Shown in pieces: positions 1-57,648 of a stretch of DNA of 64,000 nt. The DNA is from a virus. The stretch is taken from IMG/VR virus record IMGVR_UViG_3300045988_089740. One strand, given 5' to 3'. Under the pieces are notes generated by a model. The model was not told the DNA's origin. It was given only the letters and a program-made list of their open reading frames with translations, and made no database searches. Each line of letters opens with the position of its first letter. Within the stretch, counting starts at the first letter, position 1. Both the position numbers and the translations under genes were made by a program.

Positions 1-14
1 CGGTGTTCGCCCAG
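1..14 (+). repeat. 3' end of a second DGR variable repeat (VR0, truncated by window)
   Basis: cggtgttcgccca equals the TR 3' end (1111-1123) and the VR1 3' end (603-615). Confidence 0.6.
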
Positions 15-61
15 TTTGTATCTTAAAATCCAATCTCTTTGTATCTAAAACGGAGGAATGA
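1..61 (+). CDS. 3' end of an upstream DGR target paralog (partial, runs off window start)
   Basis: Frame 2-61 reads GVRPVCILKSNLFVSKTEE*. Nt 1-24 are identical to 603-626, the end of the VR and following codons of the next gene. Stop 59-61 overlaps the next ATG at 58. Confidence 0.6.
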   Translation, partial: GVRPVCILKSNLFVSKTEE

Positions 62-663
62 AAATGAAGAAAAATCTGAAATATTTTGAAAATGAATTAA
101 ACCGGATCAATAAAGAATTTGCTGAATATAAAAAGCAGCATATGGAAAAACCGGAAATTGGTAAAACGGTAGAAATCGCCGGAATGGAATGGATGATTTT
201 GGACAAGACAGAAAAAGGATATTTTGCCGTTTTGAATGGATTTGATGGAGAAGAAAGAACATTTGATTCAGATTCAAATAACTGGATTTCAAGTAAACTT
301 CGAGAAGAATTAAATACTAAATTCTTGAAAAAGATTGCGGACGAATTAGGAGAGGATGCAGTCGTCGGATTTGATCGTGATTTACTTTCTCTGGATGGTC
401 AGACAGAATACGGACATTGCGAAGATAAGATTTCACTTTTGACTGTGGATGAGTACCGGAAATATCGTAAATTACTGCCGAACATGCCGAAATGGTGGTG
501 GTTGATTACGCCATGGAGTACACCAGTAAATGATTACAATTCAACACTTACCGTTGTTTCGCCTTCCGGCTGCATCAGCGACAGTAACTACGGCAGCAGT
601 AACGGTGTTCGCCCAGTTTGTATCTTTTCTTCTTCAATCTTTGAATCAGAGAATGATAAATGA
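58..663 (+). CDS. DGR target protein (coiled-coil N-terminus, C-terminal WWW...GVRP variable module)
   Basis: 201-aa ORF with VR1 in its last ~40 codons (LTVVSPSGCISDSNYGSSNGVRPVC). The SD at 50-57 may favour the ATG at 64 as the true start. Confidence 0.85.
   Translation: MKMKKNLKYFENELNRINKEFAEYKKQHMEKPEIGKTVEIAGMEWMILDKTEKGYFAVLNGFDGEERTFDSDSNNWISSKLREELNTKFLKKIADELGEDAVVGFDRDLLSLDGQTEYGHCEDKISLLTVDEYRKYRKLLPNMPKWWWLITPWSTPVNDYNSTLTVVSPSGCISDSNYGSSNGVRPVCIFSSSIFESENDK
547..616 (+). repeat. DGR variable repeat VR1
   Basis: Aligns to 1055-1124 at an offset of 508. There are 10 mismatches and every one has A in the TR copy. Confidence 0.9.
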
Positions 664-1034
664 TGGCAAATGAAGATTTAAGAGTTATCACAAAAGCGAA
701 GCAATTAGCCAAGCATACGTTAATTATGACCAGCAATGCACGTAGATATCCAAAGAAATTCAGATTTTCTCTTGTGGATAAAATACAAAATAAAGCCCTG
801 GAAATATATGAAATGCTTTTTGAAGCTAACCGAACAGACATAAAAGATTATAAAAGAGAAAGATTGGAGCTTCAGACAAAAGCAATTACACATTGCGATG
901 AACTTATGTATTTTATAGAGCTTTCTTATGAACTGAATATCATAAATTCAGGGAGTATGGAAGCGTGGTCAAAAATGGTCATGGATGTGAAACATATGGC
1001 GATTGCTTGGAGGTCAAAAGACAGAAGCAGGTAA
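660..1034 (+). CDS. avd: Accessory variability determinant (Avd-like four-helix-bundle protein)
   Basis: 124-aa basic helical protein sitting between target and TR, the canonical DGR position. It resembles the 23S-IVS/Avd family (KAKQLAKHT...FRFSLVDKIQNKALEIYE). Start overlaps the target stop. Confidence 0.75.
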   Translation: MMANEDLRVITKAKQLAKHTLIMTSNARRYPKKFRFSLVDKIQNKALEIYEMLFEANRTDIKDYKRERLELQTKAITHCDELMYFIELSYELNIINSGSMEAWSKMVMDVKHMAIAWRSKDRSR

Positions 1035-1054
1035 CAACTTAGGTTATGCGTTGC

Positions 1055-1124
1055 AATACCGTTGTTTCGCCTTCCGGCTACATCAACAACAATAACTACA
1101 ACAACAGTAACGGTGTTCGCCCAA
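1055..1124 (+). repeat. DGR template repeat (TR)
   Basis: Non-coding copy of the VR, rich in AAC/AAT (reads ...SGYINNNNYNNSNGVRP). Lies in the avd-RT spacer. Confidence 0.9.
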
Positions 1125-1227
1125 CCTGGATCACAGGCAGACAGAGTAAGCACAAAGCTGAAATCAGTAAAGATACAAGTAAATGCATAACCTTTCCGGA
1201 ATGGATAAATATAAAGGAACAAAAACA

Positions 1228-2247
1228 ATGGATAAAGAAATTGTTGCAAATTTTGAGAATTTATATCGTTCTTACAAGAAGGTTAAAAGCGGTAAAAAAT
1301 TTAACTCAGGAACTGCAAGGTTTTCTAATTTATCTCTTGAAGGCATTCACCTTCTAAAAGAACAGTTGGAAAGCCAAACGTATACCATAAATCCATATAA
1401 TAAGTTTCAAATCCACGAGCCAAAAGAACGTACAATAGAATCATGTGCATTCAAGGATAAAGTAGTGCAGAGATGCTTTTCCGATTATGTTCTGACTCCG
1501 AAGCTTGAAAAAATTCTGATTAAATGGAATACCGCTGGACAACAGGGAAAAGGACAACATATGGCAATGGACGGTTTAAAGGAGCAGATGTTGGATTTCT
1601 ATGAAAAGAATGGAATAAATGGATGGATTGTAAAATGTGATATTCATAAATATTTTTACAGCATAGATCATGAAATAATGAAAGACGTACTTGACTACTA
1701 TTTTGATGATGATTTTGCAATCTGGCTGAATCATTTATTTATTGATAGCACAGGAAATCCAGGACTACCATTAGGGAACCAGGTCAACCTGAAATATGCA
1801 TTGCTACTACTTCATTCGCTAGATCAGATGATAACGATTGAGTTTGGAAATCCATATTATGGACGATATAACGATGATTTTTATGTGTTGTGCAAAACAA
1901 AAGACATCGCCAGAGAAATTCTTGAAGCAATTCGAATGATGGTTAAAAGTCTCGGGCTGGAATTGAACCCAAAATCGCAAATTGTACCGTTCCGAATGGG
2001 ACTGTGTTATCTTGGATTCCACCATTACGTGACTGATGAGGGGAAATATATCAGAAAATTACGTGGTGACAGAAAAAGAAATACTCAGAAAAAGGTTCGT
2101 AGATGGGTTCGTGCAGTAAATGAAGAAAAGATGCCAGTGGAAAAATTCAACGAAAAATATGGAGCATGTAGGAACCATATGCTTCATGGAAACTGTATTA
2201 AATTATGCCACAGTATGGATTTGGAAATTGAAAGGAGAATGAAGTGA
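1228..2247 (+). CDS. DGR reverse transcriptase
   Basis: RT motifs present: KERTIESCAFKDKVVQ, LPLGNQVN (DGR-type GNxxxQ-like), YGRYNDDFYVL (YxDD box). The ORF opens at 1183 but the ATG at 1228 gives the typical MDKEI N-terminus. Confidence 0.85.
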   Translation: MDKEIVANFENLYRSYKKVKSGKKFNSGTARFSNLSLEGIHLLKEQLESQTYTINPYNKFQIHEPKERTIESCAFKDKVVQRCFSDYVLTPKLEKILIKWNTAGQQGKGQHMAMDGLKEQMLDFYEKNGINGWIVKCDIHKYFYSIDHEIMKDVLDYYFDDDFAIWLNHLFIDSTGNPGLPLGNQVNLKYALLLLHSLDQMITIEFGNPYYGRYNDDFYVLCKTKDIAREILEAIRMMVKSLGLELNPKSQIVPFRMGLCYLGFHHYVTDEGKYIRKLRGDRKRNTQKKVRRWVRAVNEEKMPVEKFNEKYGACRNHMLHGNCIKLCHSMDLEIERRMK

Positions 2248-2711: not shown

Positions 2712-3461
2712 TTGTTCATGCGAGTAATTTCAACAGGAAGTACGAAAGGAAACTGTTACGCTTTGCAGTCAAGTACAGGCGAGATTGTTCTTCTTGACTG
2801 CGGATGCGATTACAAAAAGATTCTCAGAGGGATTGACTACCAGATAAACAATGTTTCCGGCGTGCTTCTTTCGCATGAACATGGCGATCACACCGAAGCT
2901 GTTCATGAAATCATGAATGCAGGAATCACGGTCTATACCGGCCAAGAAACAATCAAAAACTTAGGCATAACGGACGGAACTATAAAAGCTGTTGCTGAAA
3001 AGAAATACTTCAAAATCGGCTCGTTCAGCGCAGTTCCGTTCAGCTTGCCGCATACATCTGCAAATAAAGAGCCATGTTCGAACTTCGGGTATCTAGTAGA
3101 ACATGAGGAAATGGGAAAGCTTCTTTACCTGACAGACTTTGAGCATTGCCGGTACAAATTCAAATCAATGGAACTTAATCACTTGGTTATTGGTTGTAAT
3201 TACTGCGAGGAACTGATAGACAGAAACAACCCGAAGTGGAAGCATCAGATCACCGGGCATTGTTCTTTGTCAACTTGTAAGCAATTCATTAGGGAAAATC
3301 TCACAGAATCGCTTAAAACGGTAACGCTGGTACATTTGAGCGGTGATGCTTCAGATGCTGGGAAAATGCTTAAAGAAATTAAAGAAGTTGTCGGTGATGG
3401 TGTTCTGGTTCAGATTGGACAAGCCGGTTTGGAAGTTGATTTGAACTTGTTTCCATTTTGA
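2712..3461 (+). CDS. Metallo-beta-lactamase-fold hydrolase
   Basis: HEHGDH motif (HxHxDH). TTG start 6 nt after the GAGGTGA SD. Confidence 0.7.
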   Translation: MFMRVISTGSTKGNCYALQSSTGEIVLLDCGCDYKKILRGIDYQINNVSGVLLSHEHGDHTEAVHEIMNAGITVYTGQETIKNLGITDGTIKAVAEKKYFKIGSFSAVPFSLPHTSANKEPCSNFGYLVEHEEMGKLLYLTDFEHCRYKFKSMELNHLVIGCNYCEELIDRNNPKWKHQITGHCSLSTCKQFIRENLTESLKTVTLVHLSGDASDAGKMLKEIKEVVGDGVLVQIGQAGLEVDLNLFPF

Positions 3462-8099: not shown

Positions 8100-9008
8100 A
8101 TGAGAATACAACTTATAGATGTTGATGGTCATAATTTCCCGAATTTGCCATTGATGAAAATATCGGCATGGCATAAGGGAAAAGGCGATTCCGTAGAATG
8201 GTACGACCCATTGACAGCATGGATAAATCCACCAGATAAGGTGTATATGAGCAAGGTGTTTACGTTTACGCCGGATTATCCACATCCTGTATGTGGATCA
8301 GAAATCATAAAGGGCGGTACAGGGTACGAGTATCCGTCTGGTGGGGAACCATTACCAAGTGAAATTGAACATATTTATCCTGATTATGGCCTCTATCCAG
8401 AGCTATGTAAAGATACCGCTTATGGTTTTCTTACAAGAGGATGCCCTAGAGGGTGCGATTTCTGTATCGTAAAAGATAAAGAAGGAAAGAAAAGCTGTAA
8501 AGTATCAAATTTATCAGAATTTTGGAATGGTCAAAAGAATATAGTCTTGCTTGATCCGAACATGTTCGCTTGTACAGAATGGAAAAATCTATCTGAACAG
8601 TTGATAGACAGCAAAGCATATATAGATTTTTCACAAGGCTGCGATATTCGGATTATGACCGAAGAAAAGGCAAATTACATTAAGCAAATGAAAATAAAAC
8701 AGATTCATTTTGCATGGGACAGATATGAAGATAAAAACATGATTATGCCAAAATTCCAGATGTTCAAGAAAATAACCGAATGGGATCGCAGAAAGATGCC
8801 TGTATATGTGCTGACAAATTTTAATACCACATTTGAACAGGATTTGGAAAGAGTATACACACTTCGGGATTTAGGGTATTGGCCCTACGTGATGATTTTT
8901 GATAAGCAAAACACAAAACCTACCGATTCCGTCAGGAGATTACAACGATGGGTAAATATGAGAGCTACGTTTGAAAGCGTAAGAAAGTTTGAAGATTATA
9001 CAGGATAG
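8100..9008 (+). CDS. Radical SAM domain protein
   Basis: CxxxCxxC cluster motif in GFLTRGCPRGCDFCIV. ATG 8100 follows the GAAAGGAAG SD; the ORF opens at 8016. Confidence 0.65.
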   Translation: MRIQLIDVDGHNFPNLPLMKISAWHKGKGDSVEWYDPLTAWINPPDKVYMSKVFTFTPDYPHPVCGSEIIKGGTGYEYPSGGEPLPSEIEHIYPDYGLYPELCKDTAYGFLTRGCPRGCDFCIVKDKEGKKSCKVSNLSEFWNGQKNIVLLDPNMFACTEWKNLSEQLIDSKAYIDFSQGCDIRIMTEEKANYIKQMKIKQIHFAWDRYEDKNMIMPKFQMFKKITEWDRRKMPVYVLTNFNTTFEQDLERVYTLRDLGYWPYVMIFDKQNTKPTDSVRRLQRWVNMRATFESVRKFEDYTG

Positions 9009-15805: not shown

Positions 15806-17530
15806 ATGAACGTTTATCGCACTAGAGAAATACTGAAGACTTGCAGTATTTTCGATCTAAAATTAAAGGTGGCGTTTTACGCAAGAGTAAGCACAGAATC
15901 AGAAGACCAACAAGTTTCCATCCATCACCAGGATGAATATTACAGAAACTTCATTGCTCAAAATAGAAACTGGGTATTTGTTGGGGCGTACATTGACAAT
16001 GGAATATCGGGAATACGAACTGAGAAAAGAGACGAATTTCAACGTATGATGGCAGACGCCAAAGCTGGGAAAATTGATATGATCGTAACGAAAGAAATTA
16101 CCAGGTTTGCGAGAAATACCTTAGACAGCATAAAATATACAAGAGAATTACTGATGTATGGCGTATGCGTATGGTTTCAAAACGACAACATCAATACGAT
16201 TGACGAAGATAGTGAATTAAGACTTACCATAATGTCCGGAATTGCCCAAGATGAATCAAGAAAACTCTCCAATCGAATAAAATTCGGACATGCGCAGTCA
16301 ATAAAAAATGGGGTAGTCCTTGGATCCCGAATATACGGGTACATCAAGAAAGACGGAAAGCTTACGATCGACCCCAAAACAGCTCCGATGATAAAAGAAA
16401 TATTCGAAAAGTATTCTACGGGAGAATGGTCCACATCCGCCATTGAGAAATATCTATACAAAAAAGGATATCGAAATTACAAAGGCGGAAAACTCAGCCG
16501 AGATAATATCAAAAAGATAATCAAGAATCCGAAATACAAAGGCTATTATTGCGGCGGAAAAGTAAAAATTGTCGATATGTTCACTAAAAAGCAAGAGTTT
16601 TTGCCAGAGGACGAATGGACAATGTACAAAGATGACGGGAACCATGTTCCGCAGATTGTAGATGAATCCGTATGGGATAAGGCAAATGTCATTATGCAAA
16701 CACGGAGCGATGCGATCAAATCCCACAGAACGTCTTTCAAACAAAATAATTTATTCACTGGATATATCTTTTGCGGTAATGATGGAGCACCGTACTGGAT
16801 GAAGCAGCACACTATAAGAGGGCGTGAAGATGCAAGATGGGTATGTAGCTATCGTATAAAAAACGGAGCGCAAAGCTGTAACTCTTTTGGGATACGTGAG
16901 AGAGAATTAAGGGTGATGCTTGCAGACCTTATCAATAAATCCGGGGATATCCAAACAGCTATTGAAAAATATATAAGCTTGGTTGAAAAGAACATAGACT
17001 TCAGCAACGATGGGGCTGAGATAAGCCGACTTAAAAACATGATTCTCCAGATAGAGAAAAAGAAAGACAAGCTTCTTGACCTGAATCTGGATGGAATCAT
17101 AACAAACTCTGAATACATTGAAAAAAGTGAAAAATTCAAGGATGAAATTGAAAGCATAAACAATAAACTTTCCGAACTGGAATCAAAAGAAGAAGCCAGC
17201 AAAGATTTTCATTTGAAATTAAAAGAAATCGGTATGATATTAAACGATCTACAAGGAGTTTGCCCAGAAGACATCACCAAAACGGTTCTGGGAGAATTTT
17301 TGGACAAAATATTAATAAATCCAAAGGGCCCACAGGAGTGCGAAATTTTGTTCTTTTTAAAGACCGGAGATGTAAAAAAAAAGTCAATAACCGAGCGGGA
17401 TAAACCGGGCTGTTCTGAATATTTTTTTTTAAATAAGTTCTCAGAACGACACGCCGTATTTTACAGGAAAATCAACTATGTGGATGGATGCGAAAAGGAA
17501 TTTAACTACACTTACGCATTTGCAATCTAA
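15806..17530 (+). CDS. Large serine recombinase (phage integrase type)
   Basis: N-terminal resolvase domain (VAFYARVSTESEDQ, IDMIVTKEITRFARN), recombinase domain, Cys-containing zinc-ribbon region and coiled coil; 574 aa. Confidence 0.9.
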   Translation: MNVYRTREILKTCSIFDLKLKVAFYARVSTESEDQQVSIHHQDEYYRNFIAQNRNWVFVGAYIDNGISGIRTEKRDEFQRMMADAKAGKIDMIVTKEITRFARNTLDSIKYTRELLMYGVCVWFQNDNINTIDEDSELRLTIMSGIAQDESRKLSNRIKFGHAQSIKNGVVLGSRIYGYIKKDGKLTIDPKTAPMIKEIFEKYSTGEWSTSAIEKYLYKKGYRNYKGGKLSRDNIKKIIKNPKYKGYYCGGKVKIVDMFTKKQEFLPEDEWTMYKDDGNHVPQIVDESVWDKANVIMQTRSDAIKSHRTSFKQNNLFTGYIFCGNDGAPYWMKQHTIRGREDARWVCSYRIKNGAQSCNSFGIRERELRVMLADLINKSGDIQTAIEKYISLVEKNIDFSNDGAEISRLKNMILQIEKKKDKLLDLNLDGIITNSEYIEKSEKFKDEIESINNKLSELESKEEASKDFHLKLKEIGMILNDLQGVCPEDITKTVLGEFLDKILINPKGPQECEILFFLKTGDVKKKSITERDKPGCSEYFFLNKFSERHAVFYRKINYVDGCEKEFNYTYAFAI

Positions 17531-27212: not shown

Positions 27213-27527
27213 GGTGAAATAAATGTTACTGGCATTTCCGATGGTTTTAATTCCGCTGATATTGGTCGAGTGGATTAAAATAATAAAAGCAAAGGTACAG
27301 CCCTCGCCGTGTGGACTTGGAGGAAGGTTCATCACAGACAGGACGAGGCATGAAATTCCTAGATAGCCTGTATCAGTACGGATTTATGATAATGAAATAG
27401 ATATCCAAAACCAAATTTCCTCCAAATGAGTTACGACTGATACAGGCGTTCCAGGATAAACATAAATATAGCAATGGTGTTTTTGAAGTATATCACGTGC
27501 GGCAGGGTTGAGCGACTGCCGCAACAT

Positions 27528-27599
27528 AGCGCATTGGCGAAGCGGTAACGCACCGGACTTTGACTCCGTTATGCGTGGGTTCGAATCCCACATGCGCCG
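27528..27599 (+). tRNA. tRNA-Gln (anticodon TTG)
   Basis: Cloverleaf: acceptor agcgcat/atgcgcc (A1:C72 mismatch); D-arm GCGAAGCGGTAACGC; anticodon loop ctTTGac; T-arm gtggg-TTCGAAT-cccac. Confidence 0.8.
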
Positions 27600-27673
27600 T
27601 TCTGCATCGAGTTTATATCTTTTTCTTGGTGCAGATTGGATTTTCTTTTTCCTTTTTTAACGAAATACCCTTT

Positions 27674-27728
27674 AACCACCTATCGCAACGGCGATGACTA
27701 AAGGAACAGTCAAACGTTCCGGGTGGTT
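27674..27728 (+). other. three-way-junction structured element in a tRNA spacer
   Basis: aaccacc/ggtggtt closing stem encloses hairpins tcgc-aacg-gcga and tgact-aaaggaac-agtca. No T-loop is present. Confidence 0.3.
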
Positions 27729-27815
27729 TTAACCTTTGTTGCGGCTGGTGGCCAAGAACTGCAACAGTAGTAAAAAGACAGATATCACATCGACCCTGTA
27801 TCTTTTTGCTACTCA

Positions 27816-27889
27816 GGAAGCTTAGCTCAGTTGGTCAGAGTAACCGGCTCATAACCGGTCGGTCCTGGGTTCGAACCCCAGAGCTTCCA
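27816..27889 (+). tRNA. tRNA-Met (CAT anticodon; elongator Met and Ile2-type cannot be told apart by eye)
   Basis: Perfect 74-nt cloverleaf: ggaagct/agcttcc, gctc-agttggtca-gagt, accgg-ctCATaa-ccggt, ctggg-TTCGAAC-cccag. Confidence 0.9.
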
Positions 27890-28188
27890 TTTCTCCCGAA
27901 GCTGTCCATCCGTTTTGTGGATAGAAAAAACTGCCGAATGTGTGTATGTGGGTTGTTTTTCAGAAGGTACGTAACGGCGTAGCCGGATTTGAAAAAGCAA
28001 CTTCCCGTTCGGTTCTGTCTCTGAGTTGAATATGTCGCCAATGAGTGCACGTTGACGACAGGGAGTTTTCAAGAGGCATTTCAGGAATAATCCTCCGAAA
28101 CAACTCCGTGGGACTGGCACGGATGAAAACAGTCTAGTGGAAAGCATAACACGATAAACCTATTGCTAACCCGGGAATCCGGGTTATT

Positions 28189-28260
28189 CGGAATGTGCAA
28201 GTAACTGGGAACGACCTGGTCGTAGACTAGGTCTTGATGGTTCGAATCCATCCGTTCCGC
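28189..28260 (+). tRNA. degenerate tRNA-like sequence (GTA/Tyr-type anticodon; probable pseudo-tRNA)
   Basis: Acceptor cggaatg/cgttccg, T-arm gatgg-TTCGAAT-ccatc, anticodon arm cctgg-tcGTAga-ctagg. There is no pairable D-stem and position 33 is C. Confidence 0.3.
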
Positions 28261-28423
28261 TTGTCTGGAGCCTGAAAGTTTGGCGTGGGAATAGCGCAGG
28301 GCAGCGCATGGGAATGTAATTCCGAGTTCCGGACATGTTTGCTGCCTATCGGATTGTAAAGTGGTCTCCCTTAAAGTAGGCAATAAGTGAACGTGTTGAA
28401 ATGGTTCTTCCAGATATGTACAT

Positions 28424-28495
28424 CGCAGGATGGAGAAGCGGAATCTCGCAAGGTTCATACCCTTGAGAACGGCGGTTCAAATCCGTCTCCTGCAA
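28424..28495 (+). tRNA. tRNA-Met (CAT), initiator-like
   Basis: C1:A72 mismatch (cgcagga/tcctgca), A73, T-loop TTCAAAT, anticodon loop ttCATac, D-arm gaga-agcggaa-tctc. Only two of the three G-C pairs expected for an initiator are in the anticodon stem. Confidence 0.75.
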
Positions 28496-28611
28496 TTAAT
28501 CCGTCTATCGTTCAGCGGATTAAAGCAAATTCTCAATATACCTTCTTTCTATGAATGTGGAACTCAACCCAATTGCTCTTTCATTAGAACAATTGACCGT
28601 GACAGACGTCA

Positions 28612-28682
28612 TGGAATGTAGCTCAGTGGTAGAGCAGTGACTTACAAGTCATGTGTCGCAGGTTCGATTCCTGCCTTTCCGA
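28612..28682 (+). tRNA. atypical tRNA-Val(TAC)-like gene with a non-7-nt anticodon loop
   Basis: Normal D-arm (gctc-agtggta-gagc) and T-arm (gcagg-TTCGATT-cctgc). The anticodon stem gtgac/gtcat leaves a 6-nt loop ttacaa (8 nt if the closing C-G opens). T:T mismatch in the acceptor stem. Confidence 0.45.
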
Positions 28683-33577: not shown

Positions 33578-35320
33578 ATGTCAAAAATTACAGAAGGCTC
33601 ATTTGAATGGTATCGGGCAGTCTTAAATCAAATCATCAGCGGAGATATGTCTGTTTACCAGAATCAGAAAGACTGCCTTGATCTGTTGTTAAACATGAAC
33701 ATTGATTTACCGTTTACGGAGAATCCGGAAGCACAGCAAATGGCAATAAAAGTAAGTAAGTATACTCATAACGTAGCCGCAAGACAAGCTGCACTGACGG
33801 GAAGCGGTAATTTTGATGATATCTACTGGCAGTGTTTGCTGTTGGAAGCACAGAACTATCAGGTTGACAGCGGACTCCTTTACCTTGAAAAGAACCGAAT
33901 CCCGAAAGAACGATTCTACGAACCACGAAGAAATGTGTTCTTACAACATAACATCATAGGGTCACTGCAAGACCTGATGGATGACAAATTAGATATATTT
34001 GCATTAAGCGTACCTCCGGGTTGTGGCAAGAGTACTCTGGAAGATTTCTTTTTATCATTGGTAGGTGGATGGTTCCCGAATGACTTTAACCTGTCTTCAG
34101 CACACAGTAGCATTTTGACACGTTCCCTTTATGATGGCGTTCTGGAAATTATCAATGATCCCGTGGAATACACGTGGCATGAAATATTCCCGAACGTAGA
34201 AATTCAAGGAACAAACGCAAAGGAAACTACAGTCAATCTCGAAAGAAACGGACGATTTAAGACATGGACATTTCGTTCTATTGATGGTTCTTTGACTGGT
34301 GCCACTAGATGCAATAGATTTCTTACTGCCGATGACCTTGTGTCTGGTATTGAAGAAGCTTTGAATAAGAACCGACTTGATACCTTATGGACAAAAGTGG
34401 TAAATGACTTACGTTCCCGTAGACTTGAGGGATGCAAAGAGTTTTATATTGCCACCAGATGGTCAGTACATGACCCTATTGGAAAACTGCAACAACTGTA
34501 TGCCGGAAACCCACGGGCAAGGTTTATTGCAGTGCCAGCACTTGATGAAAATGGAAAGAGCAATTTTCTGTTTACGGTAAATGGATTCTCCGAGAAATAT
34601 TTCAATGATGCTAAGGAATCCATGGATGAAATTTCTTACAACTGTCTTTATCAGCAACAACCGGTAGAACGTGAGGGATTATTATTACCGCCAGATAAAT
34701 TAAAACGATTCTTTTTCAGTAAAGAAGACGTGCCGGATGGATGCGCGGATGAATACATCATCATTCCAGATAAAGATGCAGATGCAATATGGGCGGTATG
34801 CGATACAAAAGATAAAGGAACTGACTTCGAATCATTACCGATTGCATACCAATACGGAGATAAATTTTTCTTTCCTGATGTGGTGTTTGATGACACTACA
34901 GACTATGACATTCTGGATAGAAAGACAGCAGATATTTTGATAAGACATAACCCACATAAGATTCGTTTCGAATCAAATAATGTCGGAAACCGCGTGGCAC
35001 ACAATATTCAGAAAATGATTACTGGAAAGTGCAGAGCTGAAATTGAGACAAAACCAACGTCGGCAAATAAAGAAACAAAGATTCTCGTAAATTCGGACTA
35101 TATAGCAAAACATTTTTATTTTCTGCATCCAAGTCAGTACAAAGCAAAGTCTGATTACGGATTATTTATGGCTAATGTAACTACGTACACTACTAGGGCA
35201 AAAGTACCACATGATGATGGAATCGATTCTTTGGCTATGATGGCTGAGTACACACAAAATCCATTAGGCGGTAAAGCGACAGCAATGCAGAATCCATTAT
35301 GGGGAGGGAGAATGAGATGA
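33578..35320 (+). CDS. Terminase large subunit
   Basis: 580 aa. Walker-A-like PPGCGKS; C-terminal nuclease region with HDDGIDSLAMM. Confidence 0.85.
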   Translation: MSKITEGSFEWYRAVLNQIISGDMSVYQNQKDCLDLLLNMNIDLPFTENPEAQQMAIKVSKYTHNVAARQAALTGSGNFDDIYWQCLLLEAQNYQVDSGLLYLEKNRIPKERFYEPRRNVFLQHNIIGSLQDLMDDKLDIFALSVPPGCGKSTLEDFFLSLVGGWFPNDFNLSSAHSSILTRSLYDGVLEIINDPVEYTWHEIFPNVEIQGTNAKETTVNLERNGRFKTWTFRSIDGSLTGATRCNRFLTADDLVSGIEEALNKNRLDTLWTKVVNDLRSRRLEGCKEFYIATRWSVHDPIGKLQQLYAGNPRARFIAVPALDENGKSNFLFTVNGFSEKYFNDAKESMDEISYNCLYQQQPVEREGLLLPPDKLKRFFFSKEDVPDGCADEYIIIPDKDADAIWAVCDTKDKGTDFESLPIAYQYGDKFFFPDVVFDDTTDYDILDRKTADILIRHNPHKIRFESNNVGNRVAHNIQKMITGKCRAEIETKPTSANKETKILVNSDYIAKHFYFLHPSQYKAKSDYGLFMANVTTYTTRAKVPHDDGIDSLAMMAEYTQNPLGGKATAMQNPLWGGRMR

Positions 35321-35849: not shown

Positions 35850-37343
35850 GTGGGCAGAAATAAAATGAATTTCATTGACTTATGCCGGGGCGAATTTGGC
35901 CGCAAAATTGCCTATACCGGTGTAAGCCAGATCACAACAGCAAATGTCATAAAAGTTATTTCTAATACAATCGGCATTCATAATAGAAACAGAACTTTGA
36001 TCGATTACTTGTACCGGTACTACAAAGGAGATCAGCCGATCCTTTATAGAGAGAAGTTGGTTCGTCCGGAAATTAATAACCGAGTGTGTGAAAATCATGC
36101 ACTTGAAGTTGTTCGCTTTAAATCATCTCAGACATATGGAGAACCTATTCAGTATGTATGTAAAAAGAGCAGGGCTACAGAACGGGTGAATAAACAGGTC
36201 GATTTATTCAATGATTACTTAAAAGAAGCAAATGCAGAAGCACGTAACATTGAACTTGGAACCTATCAGAGTGCCGTAGGAACTGCATATAAAGCTATTC
36301 TAAAAGAGGATGATTGGACGAGCGACAGTGATATTTCTCCATTCAACATTTTTATACCATATCCTAGCGATTGCTATATTGTTTACTCTCGTAAGAACGG
36401 AAAGCCAATGCTCTCAGTGCAGATTCTTAAGGATGAAAACGAACAGCAGTATTATTTATGCTTTTCAGCAAAACAATATTTCGAGATTCAGAATGGACAG
36501 ATTACAAAAACCGGCATCAATGGTTTTGGTGGCATCCCGGTAGTTGAGTACCCGAATAACCACGATCGTCTTTCTGATATCGAGATTGCGATAACCATGT
36601 TTGACACTATGAACAACATGCAGTCAAACAGGATGGATGGCGTAGAACAGTTCGTGCAAGCCCTTATGAAGTTTAAGAACTGTGAGATTGATGAAAGCGA
36701 ATTTTTGAAAATGATCAAGCTCGGCGCTATCTCTGTAAAGGATACTGGAAATGGTTGCCAGTCAGATGTTGACCTGATGACCGCTGAACTGAATCAAACA
36801 GAAAGCCAAGTTGCAAAAGACGATATCTACAGCAACATGCTTATTGTTGAAGGTATGCCGGACAGGCAGCAACAATCTTCTGGCGATACCGGCCAAGCTG
36901 TATATCTCAGAAATGGATGGGATTTTGCAGAACGTAGAGCAAAACTGGATGAACCATTTATCCGGGAAGCTGAGAAAGCAAGTGCCAGAATCATTCTGAA
37001 TATCATCCGACAGACCACAAAGGATATTTCAATCTCAACAAGAGATTTTGATGTAAAGATAACCAGAAACCCGACAGATAACATGCTTGTCAAAGCACAG
37101 GCTCTTGACTATCTGTTTAAGAATAAAATTCATCCGCTGATTGCACTGATTACTTGCGGATTATTTAGTGATCCACAAAAGGTATATGAAATGAGTTTGC
37201 CTTACTTGGGAACTGTATATCCCGAACTGGCAGACCCGGACGCGGAAATGCAGAAAGCACAACAATTGATTGATAAAAACGGTAAGAATTCGGCTGAAAT
37301 TGATTCAACGGTAAATTCTTCGGCTATCAATCAAAACTCGTAA
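35850..37343 (+). CDS. Portal protein (SPP1 gp6-like)
   Basis: 497 aa following TerL. YRYYKGDQPILYRE motif. GTG start 6 nt after GGGAGGTG. Confidence 0.85.
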   Translation: MGRNKMNFIDLCRGEFGRKIAYTGVSQITTANVIKVISNTIGIHNRNRTLIDYLYRYYKGDQPILYREKLVRPEINNRVCENHALEVVRFKSSQTYGEPIQYVCKKSRATERVNKQVDLFNDYLKEANAEARNIELGTYQSAVGTAYKAILKEDDWTSDSDISPFNIFIPYPSDCYIVYSRKNGKPMLSVQILKDENEQQYYLCFSAKQYFEIQNGQITKTGINGFGGIPVVEYPNNHDRLSDIEIAITMFDTMNNMQSNRMDGVEQFVQALMKFKNCEIDESEFLKMIKLGAISVKDTGNGCQSDVDLMTAELNQTESQVAKDDIYSNMLIVEGMPDRQQQSSGDTGQAVYLRNGWDFAERRAKLDEPFIREAEKASARIILNIIRQTTKDISISTRDFDVKITRNPTDNMLVKAQALDYLFKNKIHPLIALITCGLFSDPQKVYEMSLPYLGTVYPELADPDAEMQKAQQLIDKNGKNSAEIDSTVNSSAINQNS

Positions 37344-38541: not shown

Positions 38542-39576
38542 ATGCCATACAATGTATTAGAAGCTATCACAGCAGAAGAAAGATTGAATTTTGCTCAGAA
38601 TTTTTCTGTGGCAAGACCTGGTATTCTCGATACCATTTTCCCGGATGTAAAGACACCGTTTTGGAAAGCCGAATATTACAGACTTATGGCTGGACAACGA
38701 CTGCCGGAGGTAGCGTTCGTTCATGCACTCGATACTGAAGCAGAGATCGGCTCCAGACCAGGATTTGAGAAAGTTCTGACTGAAAAACTCTTTATCAAGA
38801 GGAAAATCAATCAGTCAGAGCGTCTCCAGGAAGCTATCGAAAATGGTGTTCCGGATGATGAAACTCTTACAAACTTTGTTTTTGACGATGCGACAAACCT
38901 GTTTGAAGGTGTTGTTGGAAGGGCAAACATCATGAAAGGCCAATTCCTTTCAACCGGTATGGTAAAAATTGATGAAAACAATGTGAAAATGAATATCGAT
39001 TATGGCGTACCAAGTAATGCAAAGGTTGATCTTACCGACTGGTCCGCAGCAGACGCAGATATCATGGGCGATATTCAGAAGATGGTAACTGTAGCCGAGG
39101 ATTCTGGATATGTAGTGACAAATGCAGTCACATCTCTGAAGATGATCAACTATATGAGAAACAACACAGCTATGCAGACGGCTGTTCTGGGAGCTGCGAA
39201 TAAACGTCTCCTTACCAGACAGGAGCTTGCAAATCTGCTCATGCAGGAGTACGGAATCACCATTGGTCGTTGCGATGAGAAATTCTGTTACAGAAAAGCA
39301 GACGGAACTCGGTCAACTGGAAGATACTTTAAGGAGGATGTATTTACTCTTTACGAAGCTGATGCAGGCGGTTCTTTCGGTACTGGACTTTGGGGACCAA
39401 CACCGGAAGAGAATGAATACAGACAGTTCATCCAGGAAGAGAACCGTTCTTTCGTTACTCTTTCCATGTGGGCTACACAGGATCCAGTTGCCGTATGGAC
39501 AAAAGCATCCGGTATGTTCATCCCGGTAGCACCGAAAGCCAACGGCGGTATCGTTATCGGTACAAAGGGGGAATAA
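38542..39576 (+). CDS. Major capsid protein (lambda gpE-like)
   Basis: 344 aa; position and size fit. Family assignment is from memory of the E-like N-terminus and overall pattern. Confidence 0.8.
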   Translation: MPYNVLEAITAEERLNFAQNFSVARPGILDTIFPDVKTPFWKAEYYRLMAGQRLPEVAFVHALDTEAEIGSRPGFEKVLTEKLFIKRKINQSERLQEAIENGVPDDETLTNFVFDDATNLFEGVVGRANIMKGQFLSTGMVKIDENNVKMNIDYGVPSNAKVDLTDWSAADADIMGDIQKMVTVAEDSGYVVTNAVTSLKMINYMRNNTAMQTAVLGAANKRLLTRQELANLLMQEYGITIGRCDEKFCYRKADGTRSTGRYFKEDVFTLYEADAGGSFGTGLWGPTPEENEYRQFIQEENRSFVTLSMWATQDPVAVWTKASGMFIPVAPKANGGIVIGTKGE

Positions 39577-50804: not shown

Positions 50805-53800
50805 ATGGCTGATAATACCATTGATACCCTTGATATACAAATAAATAGTAGTACCAGGAACGCTACAAAAGCATTGGGAAATCTGGCTAAAAAGTTAAAG
50901 GATGTTGACACAGCACTGGGAAACGTCAATACCGGCGGGCTTAGAAACTATGCTCGTGAAATCGGAAGAGTATCAGCGGCTTTACAGACATTAAGCAGGA
51001 CAAATGTTAGTGTGCCTAATTTGTCTGGATTAACCGGACAACTTCGTAGTTTATCGAAAGTTAATTTTTCGGAATTGGAAACAAGTGCAAAAAGCTTTCA
51101 AGAATTAGCTGTAGGATTGGGCTCTTTGAAAAATGTTTCTAGTGTTTCTATACCTAAAATAGATGCTAAAAACATCAATTCTGTGATTAATGTTATAAAT
51201 AAGTTTCAAACAATTGATACTGCAAAAATTCAACCATCCATAAATGCTATTAAAGAAATATCAAGAAGCATGTCGTTGCTGGGTAATTTGAATTTCAAAG
51301 AAAATGGTCTGATAAATGCGGCAAATGCATTAAGACGTTTATCACAATCAGACATTAAAAACTTTGATACAGACAAATTAATTTCCATATTCAGAAGTCT
51401 TCAGGCTTTTTCAACGCTTCCAGATATTTCATCAGGCATAAACAGATTGGTTTCATCTCTTGCAAAATTAGTGGCCGCAGGAGATAAATCGAATCAAGCG
51501 GCTAAAGGATTAGAATTACTTGGAATAAAATTAAACGGAGTCATAAGAAATATTTCATACGCAGGCGAAGTCTCTGATTCCATTAATTCGTTGATACAAG
51601 CCCTTGCAAAATTGGCATCAGCAGGAAATAAAACAGGCCAGACGGCATCGCAGTTAGCAAATCTTGCAGTAGAATTAAAGAAGTTTTTTGCAGCTATGAA
51701 AAACGCACCACAAATCAGTCAGAGCACTGTGCGCGTTATAGTTGCACTGGGACAGTTAGCGGCGGCTGGTGGTAAGGCTAGTGCATCAATGAATTCTGTA
51801 TCCAGATCCCTTGAAGGACTTTCTATGATAAGTTCTAGTTTATCAAGCGCCATGAGCTCACTTGCTAATATGGCAAAATCGGGATTTGGTACTTTAACAT
51901 CATCTATTTCAGGGCTGGTAAATAAGGGAAAAGAATTAAAAAGTACATCATTCAATATCAGCTCTTTGCTTAAAACCGTTCTTGGCTTCAAAGCGGCTTC
52001 GGCCGTGATGAGCAAATTCAGCGAAGCCATGGGTGGAAAAGGAATCCTTGAGATCGGTTCCGATATCGCTGAGGTCGAGAACGTTGTAGACGTTGCTTTT
52101 GGAAGCATGGCAGATCAGGCATACAAGTTTGCGTCCACGGCGACGAAACAGTTCGGACTGTCGGAACTGGCAGCAAAGAACTATTCCGGAACCATGATGG
52201 CAATGCTGAATGCTTCTGGTGTAGCACAGGAATCCGCTGCGAAGATGTCAACAACTCTTGCAGGATTAGCCGGAGATTTGGCATCTTTTTATAACATTGA
52301 TACTGATACCGCCTTCTACAAAATAAGGGCGGGCATTTCAGGTGAAATCGAGCCTTTAAAACAGCTCGGAATAAATCTTTCGATCGCAAATTTACAAGAG
52401 TATGCGTTGTCACAAGGAATTACGACAGCCTATAATTCCATGACGCAGGCTCAAAAAACGATGCTGCGCTATAACTACATCATGTCAGTTACAAGTGCGC
52501 AGCAGGGGGACTTCGCCAGGACCGCCGGATCTTGGGCCAATCAAGTACGTCTCCTTACTTTGAACATCCAGTCCCTTGCATCCGCCATAGGGCAGGGCTT
52601 AATCGCAGCGGTTCTTCCGGGAATCAAAGCTCTTAATGCCCTGATGTCCAAACTTATGCAGGCAGCAGAAACATTCAGAAACTTTATGTATGTTTTAATG
52701 GGTAAAAAAATCAAAGGATCTACCAGCGGAGTTGTGAATGATCTTGCCGGACTTGATAACGCAGCAACAGATCTTAGCAATATGGAAAATGCCGGAGATG
52801 ACGCAGCATCCGGACTTGATAACGCCACTTCATCAGCAAAAGCATTAAAGAAAGCCCTTTCAGTACTTCCTTTTGATGAATTAAATCAGCTTACTGATAA
52901 TTCGAGTAGTTCTGGATCAACGCCGAGTACCGGAACAAAGAAAACCAGTACCGGTGCAACACCTGACCTTGGGCTTGGTGGCATCACGGATCAGATTGAT
53001 GATGCGCTGAACAAAGAAGAAACCCCTATCAATAAATGGGCTGAAAAAATCCGCAAAGCTTTTCTTAACCATGACTGGAAAGGACTTGGAAAGACCATTG
53101 CAGATATGCTTAATATCGGAATCCGGAAGATTTATGATGTTATAAGTTGGAAAAATGTTGGCCCTAAAATCACGGCTTTCACAGACGCTTTTACAGAAAC
53201 ATTTAACAGTCTTGTTGATAATATTGACTGGAACCTGATGGGACGCACTTTGGGGGCTGGTCTTAACACCATCGTTAACACTATGAACCAGCTCCTTGAT
53301 GGAATTGATTGGTATAACTTAGGAGCCAAATTTGGAACCGGAATTACAGGACTTGTAAAAGAAGTAAATTGGACTAATCTTGGAAACCTTATTGGAAATT
53401 CATTTATGAAAGCCTGGGACATGTTCGCTGGCTTGGTAAATCATCTGCCCTATGCAGATATCGGAAAAGCATTTGCTGATTTATTAAATGGAGTTTTCGA
53501 AAAAATTAACTTCACAAACATAGCACACGTATTAGCTACTGGTTTAAACGGTGCGTTTGATTCTCTTAAATCATTTACTGTAAATTTCAAATGGGATGAT
53601 CTTGTCGATAACATTACTGGCGGCATCACCACATTCATGCAGCAATTTAAGTGGAAAGAAAACGGTCAGAAGCTTGAGGAATTTATAGATAACCTTTTGA
53701 CATCCCTTGTCGACATTGCGAACGGTGTAGATTGGGAAGCTTTTGGACATAATATAGGTGTTTTCCTTAGCGAAATAGACTGGTCGAAACACTTGTCACA

Positions 53801-56056: not shown

Positions 56057-56171
56057 TACGGTAAAACCAACAGGCTTACCCGACGGGGGACAAGCGGAAA
56101 TGCCTTGCCGCCTGCCTGTTGATTTACATACATTTCAAGGCATCTTATATACGAAAGGCAGGTATTTTTCT

Positions 56172-56537
56172 ATGGCAAAATCTTTTAATTACCGTAAATA
56201 TTACAAAGACTATTATGGGATTGATTTCGACAGTAGCTATGTAATCCACCATATTGACTTTGACAGAAGCAACAATGATATTAATAATTTAATTTTATTA
56301 CCTTCGAAGTTACATAGCCGATATCACTTTTTGTTAACTGGATTTAATCCTGATAAAAACAATAAAGGAATTGCAAGTCTTGATTTTAAAATCGTCTCAG
56401 AATGCGGGAGCATCCCTATGTTTGGAATAAACATGATGAAAAATTTGTGTGAAACAATGGTAGAAATTGATAAATGGGTAAGAATAAAATCCGACATGGA
56501 TAAAGAAAAATACAATAAAGAAAAGTACGGTATTTAA
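56172..56537 (+). CDS. HNH endonuclease
   Basis: VIHHIDFDRSNNDINNLILLPSKLHSRYH. The ORF opens at 56031. Confidence 0.6.
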   Translation: MAKSFNYRKYYKDYYGIDFDSSYVIHHIDFDRSNNDINNLILLPSKLHSRYHFLLTGFNPDKNNKGIASLDFKIVSECGSIPMFGINMMKNLCETMVEIDKWVRIKSDMDKEKYNKEKYGI

Positions 56538-56670
56538 TATTTAGTTAAATTCAGTAGGCTAGGTTGGCCGCCGAAAAGTGTAAACCTTGATGCACCTGCC
56601 TACTGTTTTTATAAATCAAGGATTCTGGCATATTATGGAGATGCCAACGACCAACAAGGAGGTTATCATT

Positions 56671-57648
56671 ATGAACAAAGAGTTTAATTATCCAAGAGAT
56701 TTTAAAGGAGTATGGATCCCGAAACAGGTTTTTCTTGATGAAAGATTAAATGCGATTGAAAAATTGATTCTGGCAGAAGTCGACAGTCTTGATGTAGAAG
56801 GAAGCGAAGGATGCTTTGCGAGCAATGAATATTTAGCAAATTTCTGTCAATGCAGTGTAACAAAAGTTTCTACTTCTGTTTCCAAGTTAATAAAGCTTGG
56901 ATATCTTTATGTGCTTAAAAATGACGGAAGAAAAAGGTACTTAAAGAGTAGGCTTTCAAATTTTGAAAGCCAGGAATTTAAAAACAGTAATTCAGACACG
57001 CCAAATATGAAACATAGTAATAATAGTTATGAATACAGTGTAGATGATATAGATAAAGACTTTATTTTATCAAATAAAGAGAAAAAGACTTTACCAAAGA
57101 ATGGTAAAGGTTCAAAGACTTCTGCTCCTAATAATATTAATATACTAGATATAAATAATATACCCTCACGGACAACTGAGCAGAAGGAAGTGTACCGCAA
57201 GCAAAAACAGAAAAATCGTTCTGAGAAATACCGGGACGAAGATGTACCACAGATTCTGTATAATGAGTTTGATTCACTGTATGGTGAACAGGAGAATATT
57301 CTGGAAGATCATGACATCTGTCTGACCATGGCAGTTATCGCTTATTACTTCAAGCAGTACCGGGAGCACATGGGCGAACAGCATATAATGATTTCAACCA
57401 AATACGCAAATCAGTTCATGGGAGTTATCATTGGCGATGATTCGCCACTTCTGAAAGCGGACGTGGAAGAAAAAGATGAACTCCGGTTCTATCAGGACAT
57501 GATAGACGAGTTTTTTAAATCAGACCTTGGTCAGCGAAATGGAAAAGACTTCGATCGTCATATCTGGCTGTTCTTCACTGAAGAGAATCAGAGAATCTTG
57601 TGTGAACGGGTAAAGCAGAAATGGGATAACCAAGAATACATTGACTAA
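56671..57648 (+). CDS. replisome-organizer/DnaD-like N-domain protein
   Basis: GVWIPKQVFLDERLNAIEKLILAEVDSL...NEYLANFCQCSVTKVSTSVSKLIKLGYL. ATG follows CAAGGAGG. Confidence 0.5.
   Translation: MNKEFNYPRDFKGVWIPKQVFLDERLNAIEKLILAEVDSLDVEGSEGCFASNEYLANFCQCSVTKVSTSVSKLIKLGYLYVLKNDGRKRYLKSRLSNFESQEFKNSNSDTPNMKHSNNSYEYSVDDIDKDFILSNKEKKTLPKNGKGSKTSAPNNINILDINNIPSRTTEQKEVYRKQKQKNRSEKYRDEDVPQILYNEFDSLYGEQENILEDHDICLTMAVIAYYFKQYREHMGEQHIMISTKYANQFMGVIIGDDSPLLKADVEEKDELRFYQDMIDEFFKSDLGQRNGKDFDRHIWLFFTEENQRILCERVKQKWDNQEYID

Follow-up and report, generated by a model that had tools for sequence, protein, structure and literature searches.

A diversity-generating retroelement with two small lectin-fold targets in a temperate Blautia phage

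The first 2,247 nucleotides of a viral sequence (IMG/VR record IMGVR_UViG_3300045988_089740) raise the question of whether a short imperfect repeat, whose two copies differ at adenines of one of them, belongs to a working diversity-generating retroelement (DGR), and of which proteins such an element would diversify. The window, by which we mean the whole stretch of 64,000 nucleotides analyzed, is phage DNA, as the initial annotation had it. Our results leave us nearly certain that the locus is a DGR with two small lectin-fold targets in a temperate Blautia phage. The system is of a well-known kind, solid but ordinary.

Realignment reproduced the relationship on which the initial annotation was built: template repeat (TR) positions 1055-1124 align with variable repeat (VR) positions 547-616 at an offset of 508, with ten mismatches, each at an adenine of the TR, and zero differences at any other template base. 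A repeat search independently returned the pair 549-624/1057-1132. The uninterrupted core of the alignment spans 67 nt (TR 1057-1123, VR 549-615, same offset) and holds seven of the mismatches, at TR positions 1080, 1086, 1088, 1092, 1100, 1101, and 1104. All seven fall on the 20 adenines among the 67 positions (hypergeometric P = 8.9e-5), and all seven read G in the VR; the earlier description of the VR base as C, T, or G applies to the edge positions only. Likewise, the attribution of ten mismatches to adenine mutagenesis stands for the seven in the core. Position 1124 is A in 105 of 105 TR copies and G in 105 of 105 related VRs, and is a fixed IMH/IMH* difference and not a product of mutagenesis. 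Positions 1055 and 1056 cannot be counted either, because they adjoin an unrelated, non-homologous flank and the VR bases opposite them are either nearly fixed (T in 96 of 105) or not the same in the two target genes.

The TR (1057..1123, + strand) is non-coding, in agreement with the initial annotation, and sits between avd and the reverse transcriptase (RT) gene, which are 193 nt apart. Nineteen of its 20 adenines are first or second codon bases in the VR frame, in which it translates as ...YINNNNYNNSN..., bearing out the reading NNNNYNNSN proposed earlier. An identical TR is present in six related contigs (L001, L004, L005, L006, L008, and L009). Its complete partner in the window, VR2 (549..615, + strand), carries the seven A-to-G changes, encodes the hypervariable residues 170-180 of a 199-aa protein, and covers codons 164-186 of the 201-codon ORF 58-663, late in that frame as had been noted.

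The 3' ends of the two repeats have what reads as an IMH/IMH*-type organization. In the IMH-like end of the VR (604..626, + strand), the GC-rich GGTGTTCGCCCA, common with the TR, is followed by the VR-specific GTTTGTATCTT; in the IMH*-like end of the TR (1112..1134, + strand), it is followed by the TR-specific AACCTGGATCAC. Positions 1112-1122 never vary, either in the TRs or at the matching sites of the VRs. Over 105 TR/VR pairs, the fixed differences start at the position matching 1124, and positions 1124-1126, 1129, and 1133-1134 differ in all or nearly all copies. No stable hairpin or cruciform was found after the VR when its fold was compared with shuffles (z = -0.7).

The initial annotation had also claimed the full target-avd-TR-RT architecture. 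All of these parts were found, and a second target gene upstream, cut by the window start, had been missed. The remnant of this target gene 1 (1..61, + strand) is the 3' end of a gene for a paralogous DUF6273 protein, with the IMH at 1-24, identical in sequence to 603-626 and marking the end of VR1, and the stop codon TGA at 59-61. Window positions 1-61 equal positions 9342-9402 of contig L006, where a 202-aa gene with a VR of its own ends; the product has 202 aa in related contigs, with only the last 61 nt of the gene inside the window. Target gene 2 (64..663, + strand) encodes 199 aa, in which a DUF6273 C-type-lectin-like domain comes after an N-terminal helix. Position 58 offers an alternative ATG; gene callers take the 199-aa start in the relatives. 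The protein matches Pfam DUF6273 (PF19789) with 26.7 bits, above the gathering score of 23.5, and phrog_9958 at 2.6e-48. Its AlphaFold model, computed from a diverse alignment of 55 sequences, has a pLDDT of 95 (39.6 with 28 near-identical sequences as input) and puts the VR in a C-terminal beta-hairpin made of strands 171-175 and 179-181. Foldseek searches with this model returned DUF6273/DUF1566 phage proteins, DUF6273 at 1e-7 with TM scores of 0.6-0.7, and, at 7e-6, the DUF6273 N-terminal domain of the T. ramosa IgA peptidase 9qa6; the similarity to canonical C-type lectins was weak (E above 0.1). A PDB search with target 2 as a single sequence gave nothing significant, and a profile search gave one marginal match (E = 0.012), the T. 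ramosa IgA protease 9qa6, which the fold search found again. By sequence and predicted structure, target 2 is a DUF6273 C-type-lectin-like protein with the VR at the C-terminus of the domain.

Between target gene 2 and the TR, the avd gene (660..1034, + strand) starts in overlap with the target 2 stop codon and encodes the 124-aa Avd-like protein of the initial annotation, which is basic (pI 9.5). It matches phrog_3206, 'Avd protein of DGR', over its full length at 7e-24. The match to NCBIfam DivGenRetAVD (6e-10, 39 bits) is under the cutoff of 80, those to Pfam 23S_rRNA_IVP and bAvd are also under their cutoffs, and a PDB sequence search with Avd gave nothing significant.

The RT gene (1228..2247, + strand) encodes 339 aa, close to the approximately 340 aa and YxDD box first described, with Pfam RVT_1, a match to phrog_1423 at 1e-83, and YNDD (GRYNDDF) rather than YMDD as its catalytic box. 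An in-frame ATG at 1183 would give 354 aa; this start is not conserved, and the relatives are called as 339 aa. The top match in the PDB was Brt of phage BPP-1 (8ub7, 6e-23), with a group II RT at 1.6e-11. Placement in a phylogeny upheld the assignment to DGRs: in a neighbor-joining tree of 14 sequences, with four group II RTs as the sole outgroups, the RT falls inside the DGR clade, separated from the group II intron RTs with 100% bootstrap, and is sister to the RTs of Faecalibacterium phages Brigit and Lelie. Motif 4 of the enzyme reads LGNQVNL, which retains the [I/L/V]G part of the usual [I/L/V]GxxxSQ and departs from the rest. Within the lineage, this motif ends in NL at 30 loci and in NQ at 40 loci, and in the wider clade it reads LGNQV[A/N/G]Q. 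Adenine sites were changed in 54% of cases at the NL loci vs 53% at the NQ loci. Since both variants accompany diversified VRs, the SQ dipeptide of motif 4 is evidently dispensable. An influence of the Q-to-L change on which bases are substituted was rejected, NL and NQ loci showing the same spectrum (chi-square p = 0.27).

Whether variation is confined to TR adenines in nature, as the initial annotation expected, was approximated with about 100 related phage contigs instead of reads, so that the comparison is between samples and not within one population. The relatives were obtained by looking up the Avd sequence; an exact-sequence look-up with the window's target protein gave no match, as expected because that protein is hypervariable. 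The DGR passed this examination, its variation being confined to TR-adenine positions. Among 102 unique TR/VR pairs from the related contigs, 1085 of 1149 mismatches (94%) lie on template adenines; changes are 40-fold more frequent at A sites (53% of them changed) than at non-A sites (1.3%). Of the changes at TR adenines in these pairs, 51% are A-to-G, 43% A-to-T, and 6% A-to-C. VRs paired with exactly the window's TR (n = 10) show 109 differences at A sites vs 3 at other sites. About 76 loci in the related set contribute 105 distinct VRs, with high entropy restricted to TR-A columns; at the protein level, 119 homologues are hypervariable at residues 170-180 only. Both VRs show adenine-restricted hypervariation across natural relatives with identical flanks.

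The DGR is evidently active, a conclusion drawn from the related contigs, as the window copy is a single sequence. It is very improbable that the element is a DGR by descent that has become inactive in this genome, with a VR frozen from past homing and an RT that the motif 4 change from Q to L has impaired. The window VR is indeed less diverged than average, with 7 of 20 adenines changed, all A-to-G, vs a lineage in which the average is 53% and 43% of the changes are A-to-T, and the RT has L where most relatives of the wider clade have Q. However, the ORFs are all intact, and the NL loci are as diversified as the NQ loci. Furthermore, three contigs (L006, L008, and L071) match the window with 100% identity over target nucleotides 64-548, the stretch after the VR, the TR, and the spacer. 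Their identity is 99.5-100% for avd and at least 99.5% for the RT but drops to 76-79% inside the VR. Different VRs amid identical flanks imply that this RT allele, or one with at least 99.5% nucleotide identity to it, was engaged in homing very recently. A still weaker alternative is an ordinary duplication or gene-conversion cassette varied by paralogue recombination beside an RT from a group II intron, retron, or defense system. In its favor, the two paralogous genes have a repeated 3' segment in common, and the best named NCBIfam match of the RT is the group II intron model (group_II_RT_mat, 98 bits). It can nevertheless practically be dismissed: recombination fails to explain the 40-fold excess at template adenines with non-A positions unchanged, that score is far under the cutoff of 300, the NCBIfam and PADLOC retron/DRT models reach 30-57 bits (the NCBIfam retron model 35 bits, cutoff 235), matches to group II intron and retron RNAs all stay below the Rfam gathering scores throughout the window, and the tree splits the RT from group II RTs.

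Beyond its proteins, the DGR has a TR-RT spacer (1124..1227, + strand) that is highly conserved in the lineage and is presumed to be the structured 3' part of the DGR RNA. RNAalifold, run on 41 distinct sequences, predicts a hairpin within the spacer (1125-1128/1134-1137) and a helix enclosing the TR (1041-1054/1179-1193). Pair 1126:1136 of the hairpin is compensatory (C-G in 25 sequences, A-U in 15), and the enclosing helix is retained in at least 40 of 41 sequences, with changes of wobble type only. The minimum free energy fold of TR plus spacer is marginally better than shuffles (z = -1.8). The Rfam family Phage_DGR (RF03022) has no match in the window or its relatives; a BPP-1-like control, L078, scored 104.7 bits. 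The family RT-2 (RF03077) reached 22.5 bits at 1132-1236 vs a gathering score of 40 (E = 0.015), with the 5' third of the model alone aligning well. A promoter and terminator scan inside the cassette returned nothing above shuffle expectation.

Taken as a DGR, the locus would work as follows. The cassette (target 1, target 2, avd, TR, spacer, and RT) would be transcribed on the + strand, and the RT, with Avd, would copy the 67-nt TR RNA to cDNA, misincorporating opposite about half of the template adenines. In each of the two paralogous target genes, the cDNA would then take the place of the homologous 3'-terminal VR; the GC-rich IMH end common to both repeats and the IMH* sequence specific to the TR would probably set the direction. 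Eleven codons (AAC, AAT, TAC, ATC, and AGT) would be rewritten in this way, corresponding to a predicted surface beta-hairpin of the DUF6273 C-type-lectin-like domain. The codon design allows up to about 1e11 protein variants and makes stop codons impossible. How the cDNA is primed, what Avd does, and how homing proceeds may be as in the BPP-1 paradigm, from which we infer these steps.

In several respects, the cassette resembles that of BPP-1 (mtd-avd-TR-brt): the gene order is target-avd-TR-RT, a target with a C-type-lectin fold carries the VR at its 3' end, the GC-rich 3' end of TR and VR is followed by IMH/IMH*-type differences, and about 50% of adenines are mutated. Brt is also the best solved relative of the RT, its R74 and I181 corresponding to R and L here, although RT identity to Brt is about 24%. 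The BPP-1 TR has 134 nt, in contrast to the 67 nt found here. BPP-1 further has one target, a trimeric tail-fibre tip protein of 381 aa, whereas two targets of about 200 aa are present here; no hairpin follows the VR in our cassette, its spacer RNA lies outside the Rfam Phage_DGR family, and it is located in an early recombination/replication module and not beside tail and lysis genes.

Among deposited phages, none has nucleotide similarity to the cassette, and the nearest RTs are those of Faecalibacterium phages Lelie and Brigit (34-36% identity), the sisters in the tree. Lelie, Brigit, and the gut phages nd4 and nd12 have DGR targets with DUF6273 and the VR at its C-terminus, and small single-domain DUF6273 targets ('tgt2', 'small target') as well as two-target cassettes are known (PMC11792537, PMC10743442). 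The present cassette is like those of these four phages in its DUF6273 targets with a C-terminal VR and in having Avd upstream of TR and RT. Unlike in them, both targets are small single-domain tandem paralogues, without a tentaclin or Hoc-like Ig-domain target. Motif 4 reads LGYQTSQ in Brigit and Lelie vs LGNQVN[L/Q] here, and the Brigit cassette follows baseplate and tail-fibre genes, whereas ours follows RecT. The Toutatisvirus DGR hotspot combines one TR with two DUF6273 targets and has the TR between avd and RT; one of its targets is 17 kb away, and the other has an Ig-like domain (bioRxiv 10.1101/2024.10.15.618418). The cassette described here has the same single TR for two DUF6273 targets and the same TR position, but both targets are adjacent, upstream, and without Ig domains.

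The carrier is a temperate, siphovirus-like gut Blautia phage of about 80 kb. Its host assignment derives from a named homologue, and the same cassette is present in the cultured genome of Blautia sp. BCRC 81119 (GCA_003184505.1). Metagenomes containing this phage include ERR11570516 and ERR13995370. A megablast of positions 1-2700 against deposited phages gave no match, the structural module matches faecal virome fragments only, and an RT scan of GTDB genome contigs gave no confirmed relative. The cassette follows RecT, in the early recombination/replication module, with over 30 kb separating it from the tail genes downstream in the window.

For variable proteins of this sort, the default guess is an accessory receptor- or ligand-binding role. 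Both target proteins are acidic, with charged, helical N-termini that show no obvious signal peptide when judged by eye. Together with the location in a RecT/SSB early operon and the size of about 200 aa, these traits allow a reading that we consider unlikely, in which the DUF6273 targets would be non-structural binders expressed early or in lysogeny, not virion receptor-binding proteins, and would be diversified against variable intracellular or secreted partners (such as host defense components, competitors, or host glycans).

The understanding of DGRs is unchanged by this locus. As a clean case of DGR mutagenesis in nature, it provides about 100 independent VR outcomes that started from near-identical templates, and an in vivo estimate for an RT without the canonical SQ motif, namely 53% per adenine and a spectrum of G > T >> C. 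Two small lectin-fold targets in an early module pose the modest question of their binding partners, and, as the locus belongs to a widespread human-gut Blautia prophage that is also present in a cultured strain, experiments are feasible.

The cassette in the window is a bona fide diversity-generating retroelement (DGR) of known architectural and target type, and the comparative evidence suggests recent activity. The initial annotation had described a complete DGR at 1-2247 with ten mismatches between a template repeat (TR, 1055-1124) and a variable region (VR, 547-616), all at TR adenines. That interpretation is supported, and the repeat itself was confirmed with corrections at its boundaries. 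The alignment at an offset of 508 reproduces exactly those ten TR positions, each an A in the TR, and an independent repeat search returned the same pair as 549-624 and 1057-1132. The uninterrupted repeat core spans 1057-1123 in the TR and 549-615 in the VR, and its seven mismatches (1080, 1086, 1088, 1092, 1100, 1101 and 1104) are A to G in 7/7 cases, a confinement to adenines with P = 8.9e-5 given 20 A in 67 positions. As products of mutagenesis, these seven stand, whereas 1055, 1056 and 1124 are boundary effects. Since position 1124 is A in 105/105 related TR copies and G in 105/105 VRs, it represents a fixed difference between IMH* and IMH, the 3' ends of TR and VR; 1055 and 1056 lie next to unrelated flanking sequence, and their VR counterparts are target-gene-specific or nearly fixed. 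Read in the VR frame, the TR gives T V V S P S G Y I N N N N Y N N S N G V R P, with 19/20 adenines at codon positions 1 or 2, where no substitution of an adenine can generate a stop codon. Per target, the computed repertoire amounts to 1.1e12 variants in DNA and 1.7e11 in protein.

The expectation that heterogeneity would be confined to TR-A positions was borne out in comparisons made between samples, not within one. The exact sequence of the accessory protein Avd is present on many metagenomic contigs, and an IMG/VR scan with the TR-specific IMH*/spacer sequence yielded 67 further loci. Across 102 unique TR/VR pairs (four pairs with >3 non-A mismatches were left out as likely chimeras or indels), 1085/1149 mismatches fell on adenines of each locus's own TR. 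Changes affected 53% of A and 1.3% of non-A sites, the latter concentrated at the 5' boundary (1057-1061), with a spectrum of ~51% A-to-G, 43% A-to-T and 6% A-to-C; per-column VR entropy was high only at TR-A columns. In ten VRs whose TR is exactly that of the window, 109 differences lay at A sites and 3 at non-A sites. Three related phage contigs (L006, L008 and L071) share 100% identity with the window over target nt 64-548, the sequence after the VR, the TR and the spacer, 99.5-100% in avd and at least 99.5% in the reverse transcriptase (RT) gene, but only 76-79% in the 67-nt VR. Among 119 homologues of the 199-aa target protein, hypervariable residues occur only at 170-180, and a protein search with this target returned 4395 separate 90%-identity clusters, many of the target clusters listed having few members. 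Elsewhere, VR-like sequence with its adenines replaced lies at the TR locus of L058, L065/L091, L076 and L148, with a VR-type IMH joined to the spacer in L148; such loci are either TR/VR assembly chimeras or the outcome of rare homing or gene-conversion events that hit the TR.

All components of the target-avd-TR-RT order proposed initially are present, but a second, upstream target gene had been missed. Target gene 2 (58/64-663; 199 aa from the ATG chosen by gene callers in relatives) exceeds the gathering score of Pfam DUF6273 and also matches phrog_9958. The avd gene (660-1034; 124 aa, pI 9.5) matches phrog_3206, "Avd protein of DGR" (7e-24), with matches to NCBIfam DivGenRetAVD and Pfam bAvd/23S_rRNA_IVP all below cutoffs, and the RT gene (1228-2247; 339 aa) matches RVT_1 and phrog_1423 (1e-83). 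Window positions 1-24 are identical to the VR 3' end (603-626), and 1-61 form the end of a 202-aa gene that immediately precedes target 2 in related contigs (L006 8794-9402). This gene, target 1, has its own VR and shares only ~34% protein identity with target 2. The cassette therefore reads target1-target2-avd-TR-RT, with the first base of the window falling in the 3' end of VR1; multiple targets occur in ~15% of DGRs (PMC5758913). The start of at least one related IMG/VR contig (L107/L019) falls no more than a few bases from this point. Contig starts at the VR1 IMH are consistent with assemblers breaking at the repeated, heterogeneous VR/TR, and these breaks suggest, indirectly, within-sample VR heterogeneity. 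An apparent third VR-bearing copy upstream of both targets in L004 (~8528-8760), beside a run of N, points either to a third target or to an artefact of scaffolding.

Placement of the RT agrees with the DGR assignment. Among solved structures its best match is Brt, the Bordetella phage BPP-1 RT (8ub7, 6e-23); a group II intron RT reached 1.6e-11. By tblastn against deposited phages, the closest RTs belong to Brigit and Lelie, two Faecalibacterium phages that carry DGRs (34-36% identity), with BPP-1-like phage RTs at 24%. Plasmid group II intron RTs reached only 50-72 bits, and retron and DRT models (NCBIfam, PADLOC) only 30-57 bits. In a neighbor-joining tree (331 trimmed columns, 200 bootstraps, group II RTs as the only outgroup), the window RT and its Lachnospiraceae relatives fell inside the DGR RTs with 100% support against four group II RTs, as sister to Brigit/Lelie (100%). 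The catalytic box is YNDD, instead of YMDD, in every locus of the lineage. Motif 4 (1790-1810) is LGNQVNL, in contrast to [I/L]GxxxSQ in Brt, Brigit, Lelie and a crAss-like phage; it is LGNQV[A/N/G]Q in the wider clade and polymorphic within the lineage, with LGNQVNL at 30 loci and LGNQVNQ at 40. The two forms showed no detectable difference in mutation frequency (54% vs 53%) or spectrum (p = 0.27); the variant without SQ is therefore evidently functional and the SQ dipeptide dispensable. Two Brt residues that reportedly modulate adenine mutagenesis, R74 and I181, correspond to R and L in the window RT.

The TR-RT spacer is nearly invariant throughout the lineage. RNAalifold on 41 distinct sequences predicted a hairpin directly 3' of the TR (1125-1128/1134-1137) with one compensatory change at 1126:1136 (C-G in 25 sequences, A-U in 15), and a 13-bp long-range helix (1041-1054/1179-1193) enclosing TR and spacer, kept in at least 40/41 sequences with wobble-type changes only. 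No hairpin was found 3' of the VR. The spacer gave no match to Rfam Phage_DGR, against 104.7 bits for a BPP-1-like control, and a partial, sub-threshold match to RT-2 (22.5 bits, E = 0.015), one of the RT-associated motifs for which Weinberg et al. put forward a speculative role in other DGRs (PMC5737381). The lack of any outstanding promoter or terminator signal within the cassette fits co-transcription with its tightly packed neighbour genes. Two structured RNAs were also detected in a part of the relatives that the window does not cover: RAGATH-18 (73 bits) between RecT and target gene 1 in the Blautia prophage (L077 3068-3140), and FuFi-1 (123 bits) upstream of the cassette in a related contig (L012 2000-2191, minus strand).

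The window represents a tailed temperate phage, with a serine integrase (15806-17530), large terminase (33578-35320), portal (35850-37343), major head protein (38542-39576), tape measure protein (50805-55646) and tail protein (60206-63574). Four tRNA-like genes (27527-28682) comprise Gln-TTG, two Met-CAT and a fourth with a 2-nt anticodon loop call by ARAGORN and an Rfam tRNA score of 54.6 bits. Two int-alpA RNA motifs (RF02996; 56068-56140, 42.6 bits; 56552-56621, 55.2 bits) flank the start of a replication-initiator/DnaD-like ORF (56587-57648) between the tape measure and distal tail protein genes, and the region 56068-57648 resembles a mobile or satellite-like insertion of small size within the tail module. 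The same cassette occurs in the genome of the cultured Blautia sp. BCRC 81119, and numerous human-gut data sets contain related contigs, 65-85 kb long. Upstream of the cassette, relatives carry an HTH repressor, antirepressor, SSB, 664-aa ATPase and RecT, and the genes on the downstream side are an MBL-fold hydrolase and a further SSB; these neighbours therefore place the DGR in an early recombination/replication module, whereas those of Brigit and BPP-1 adjoin tail or lysis genes. This location could, with low probability, reflect a non-structural role of the variable proteins. The hydrolase (2712-3461; phrog_392, 3e-57), just downstream of the DGR, matches the anti-Pycsar nuclease Apyc1 weakly (19.5 bits, cutoff 50) and could be a phage anti-defence nuclease.

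DUF6273 domains are already known as C-lec-like DGR targets in gut phages, and small single-domain DUF6273 targets and two-target cassettes have been described (PMC10743442; PMC11792537; bioRxiv 10.1101/2024.10.15.618418). With an alignment of 55 sequences chosen from 1304 representatives of the family, AlphaFold modeled the target at pLDDT 95 and pTM 0.86; a shallower alignment gave an unusable model (pLDDT 39.6). The predicted fold starts with a helix (3-25) and continues as a mixed alpha/beta domain, and the VR residues lie on its last beta-hairpin (strands 171-175 and 179-181). Foldseek retrieved DUF6273 phage proteins (E ~1e-7, TM 0.6-0.7), then DUF1566 proteins, with canonical C-type lectins matching only weakly (E above 0.1). 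A single solved structure with this fold was retrieved from the PDB, the N-terminal DUF6273 domain of the IgA peptidase of Thomasclavelia ramosa (9qa6, 7e-6), a match that ties the phage targets to part of an enzyme with which a gut bacterium cleaves immunoglobulins.
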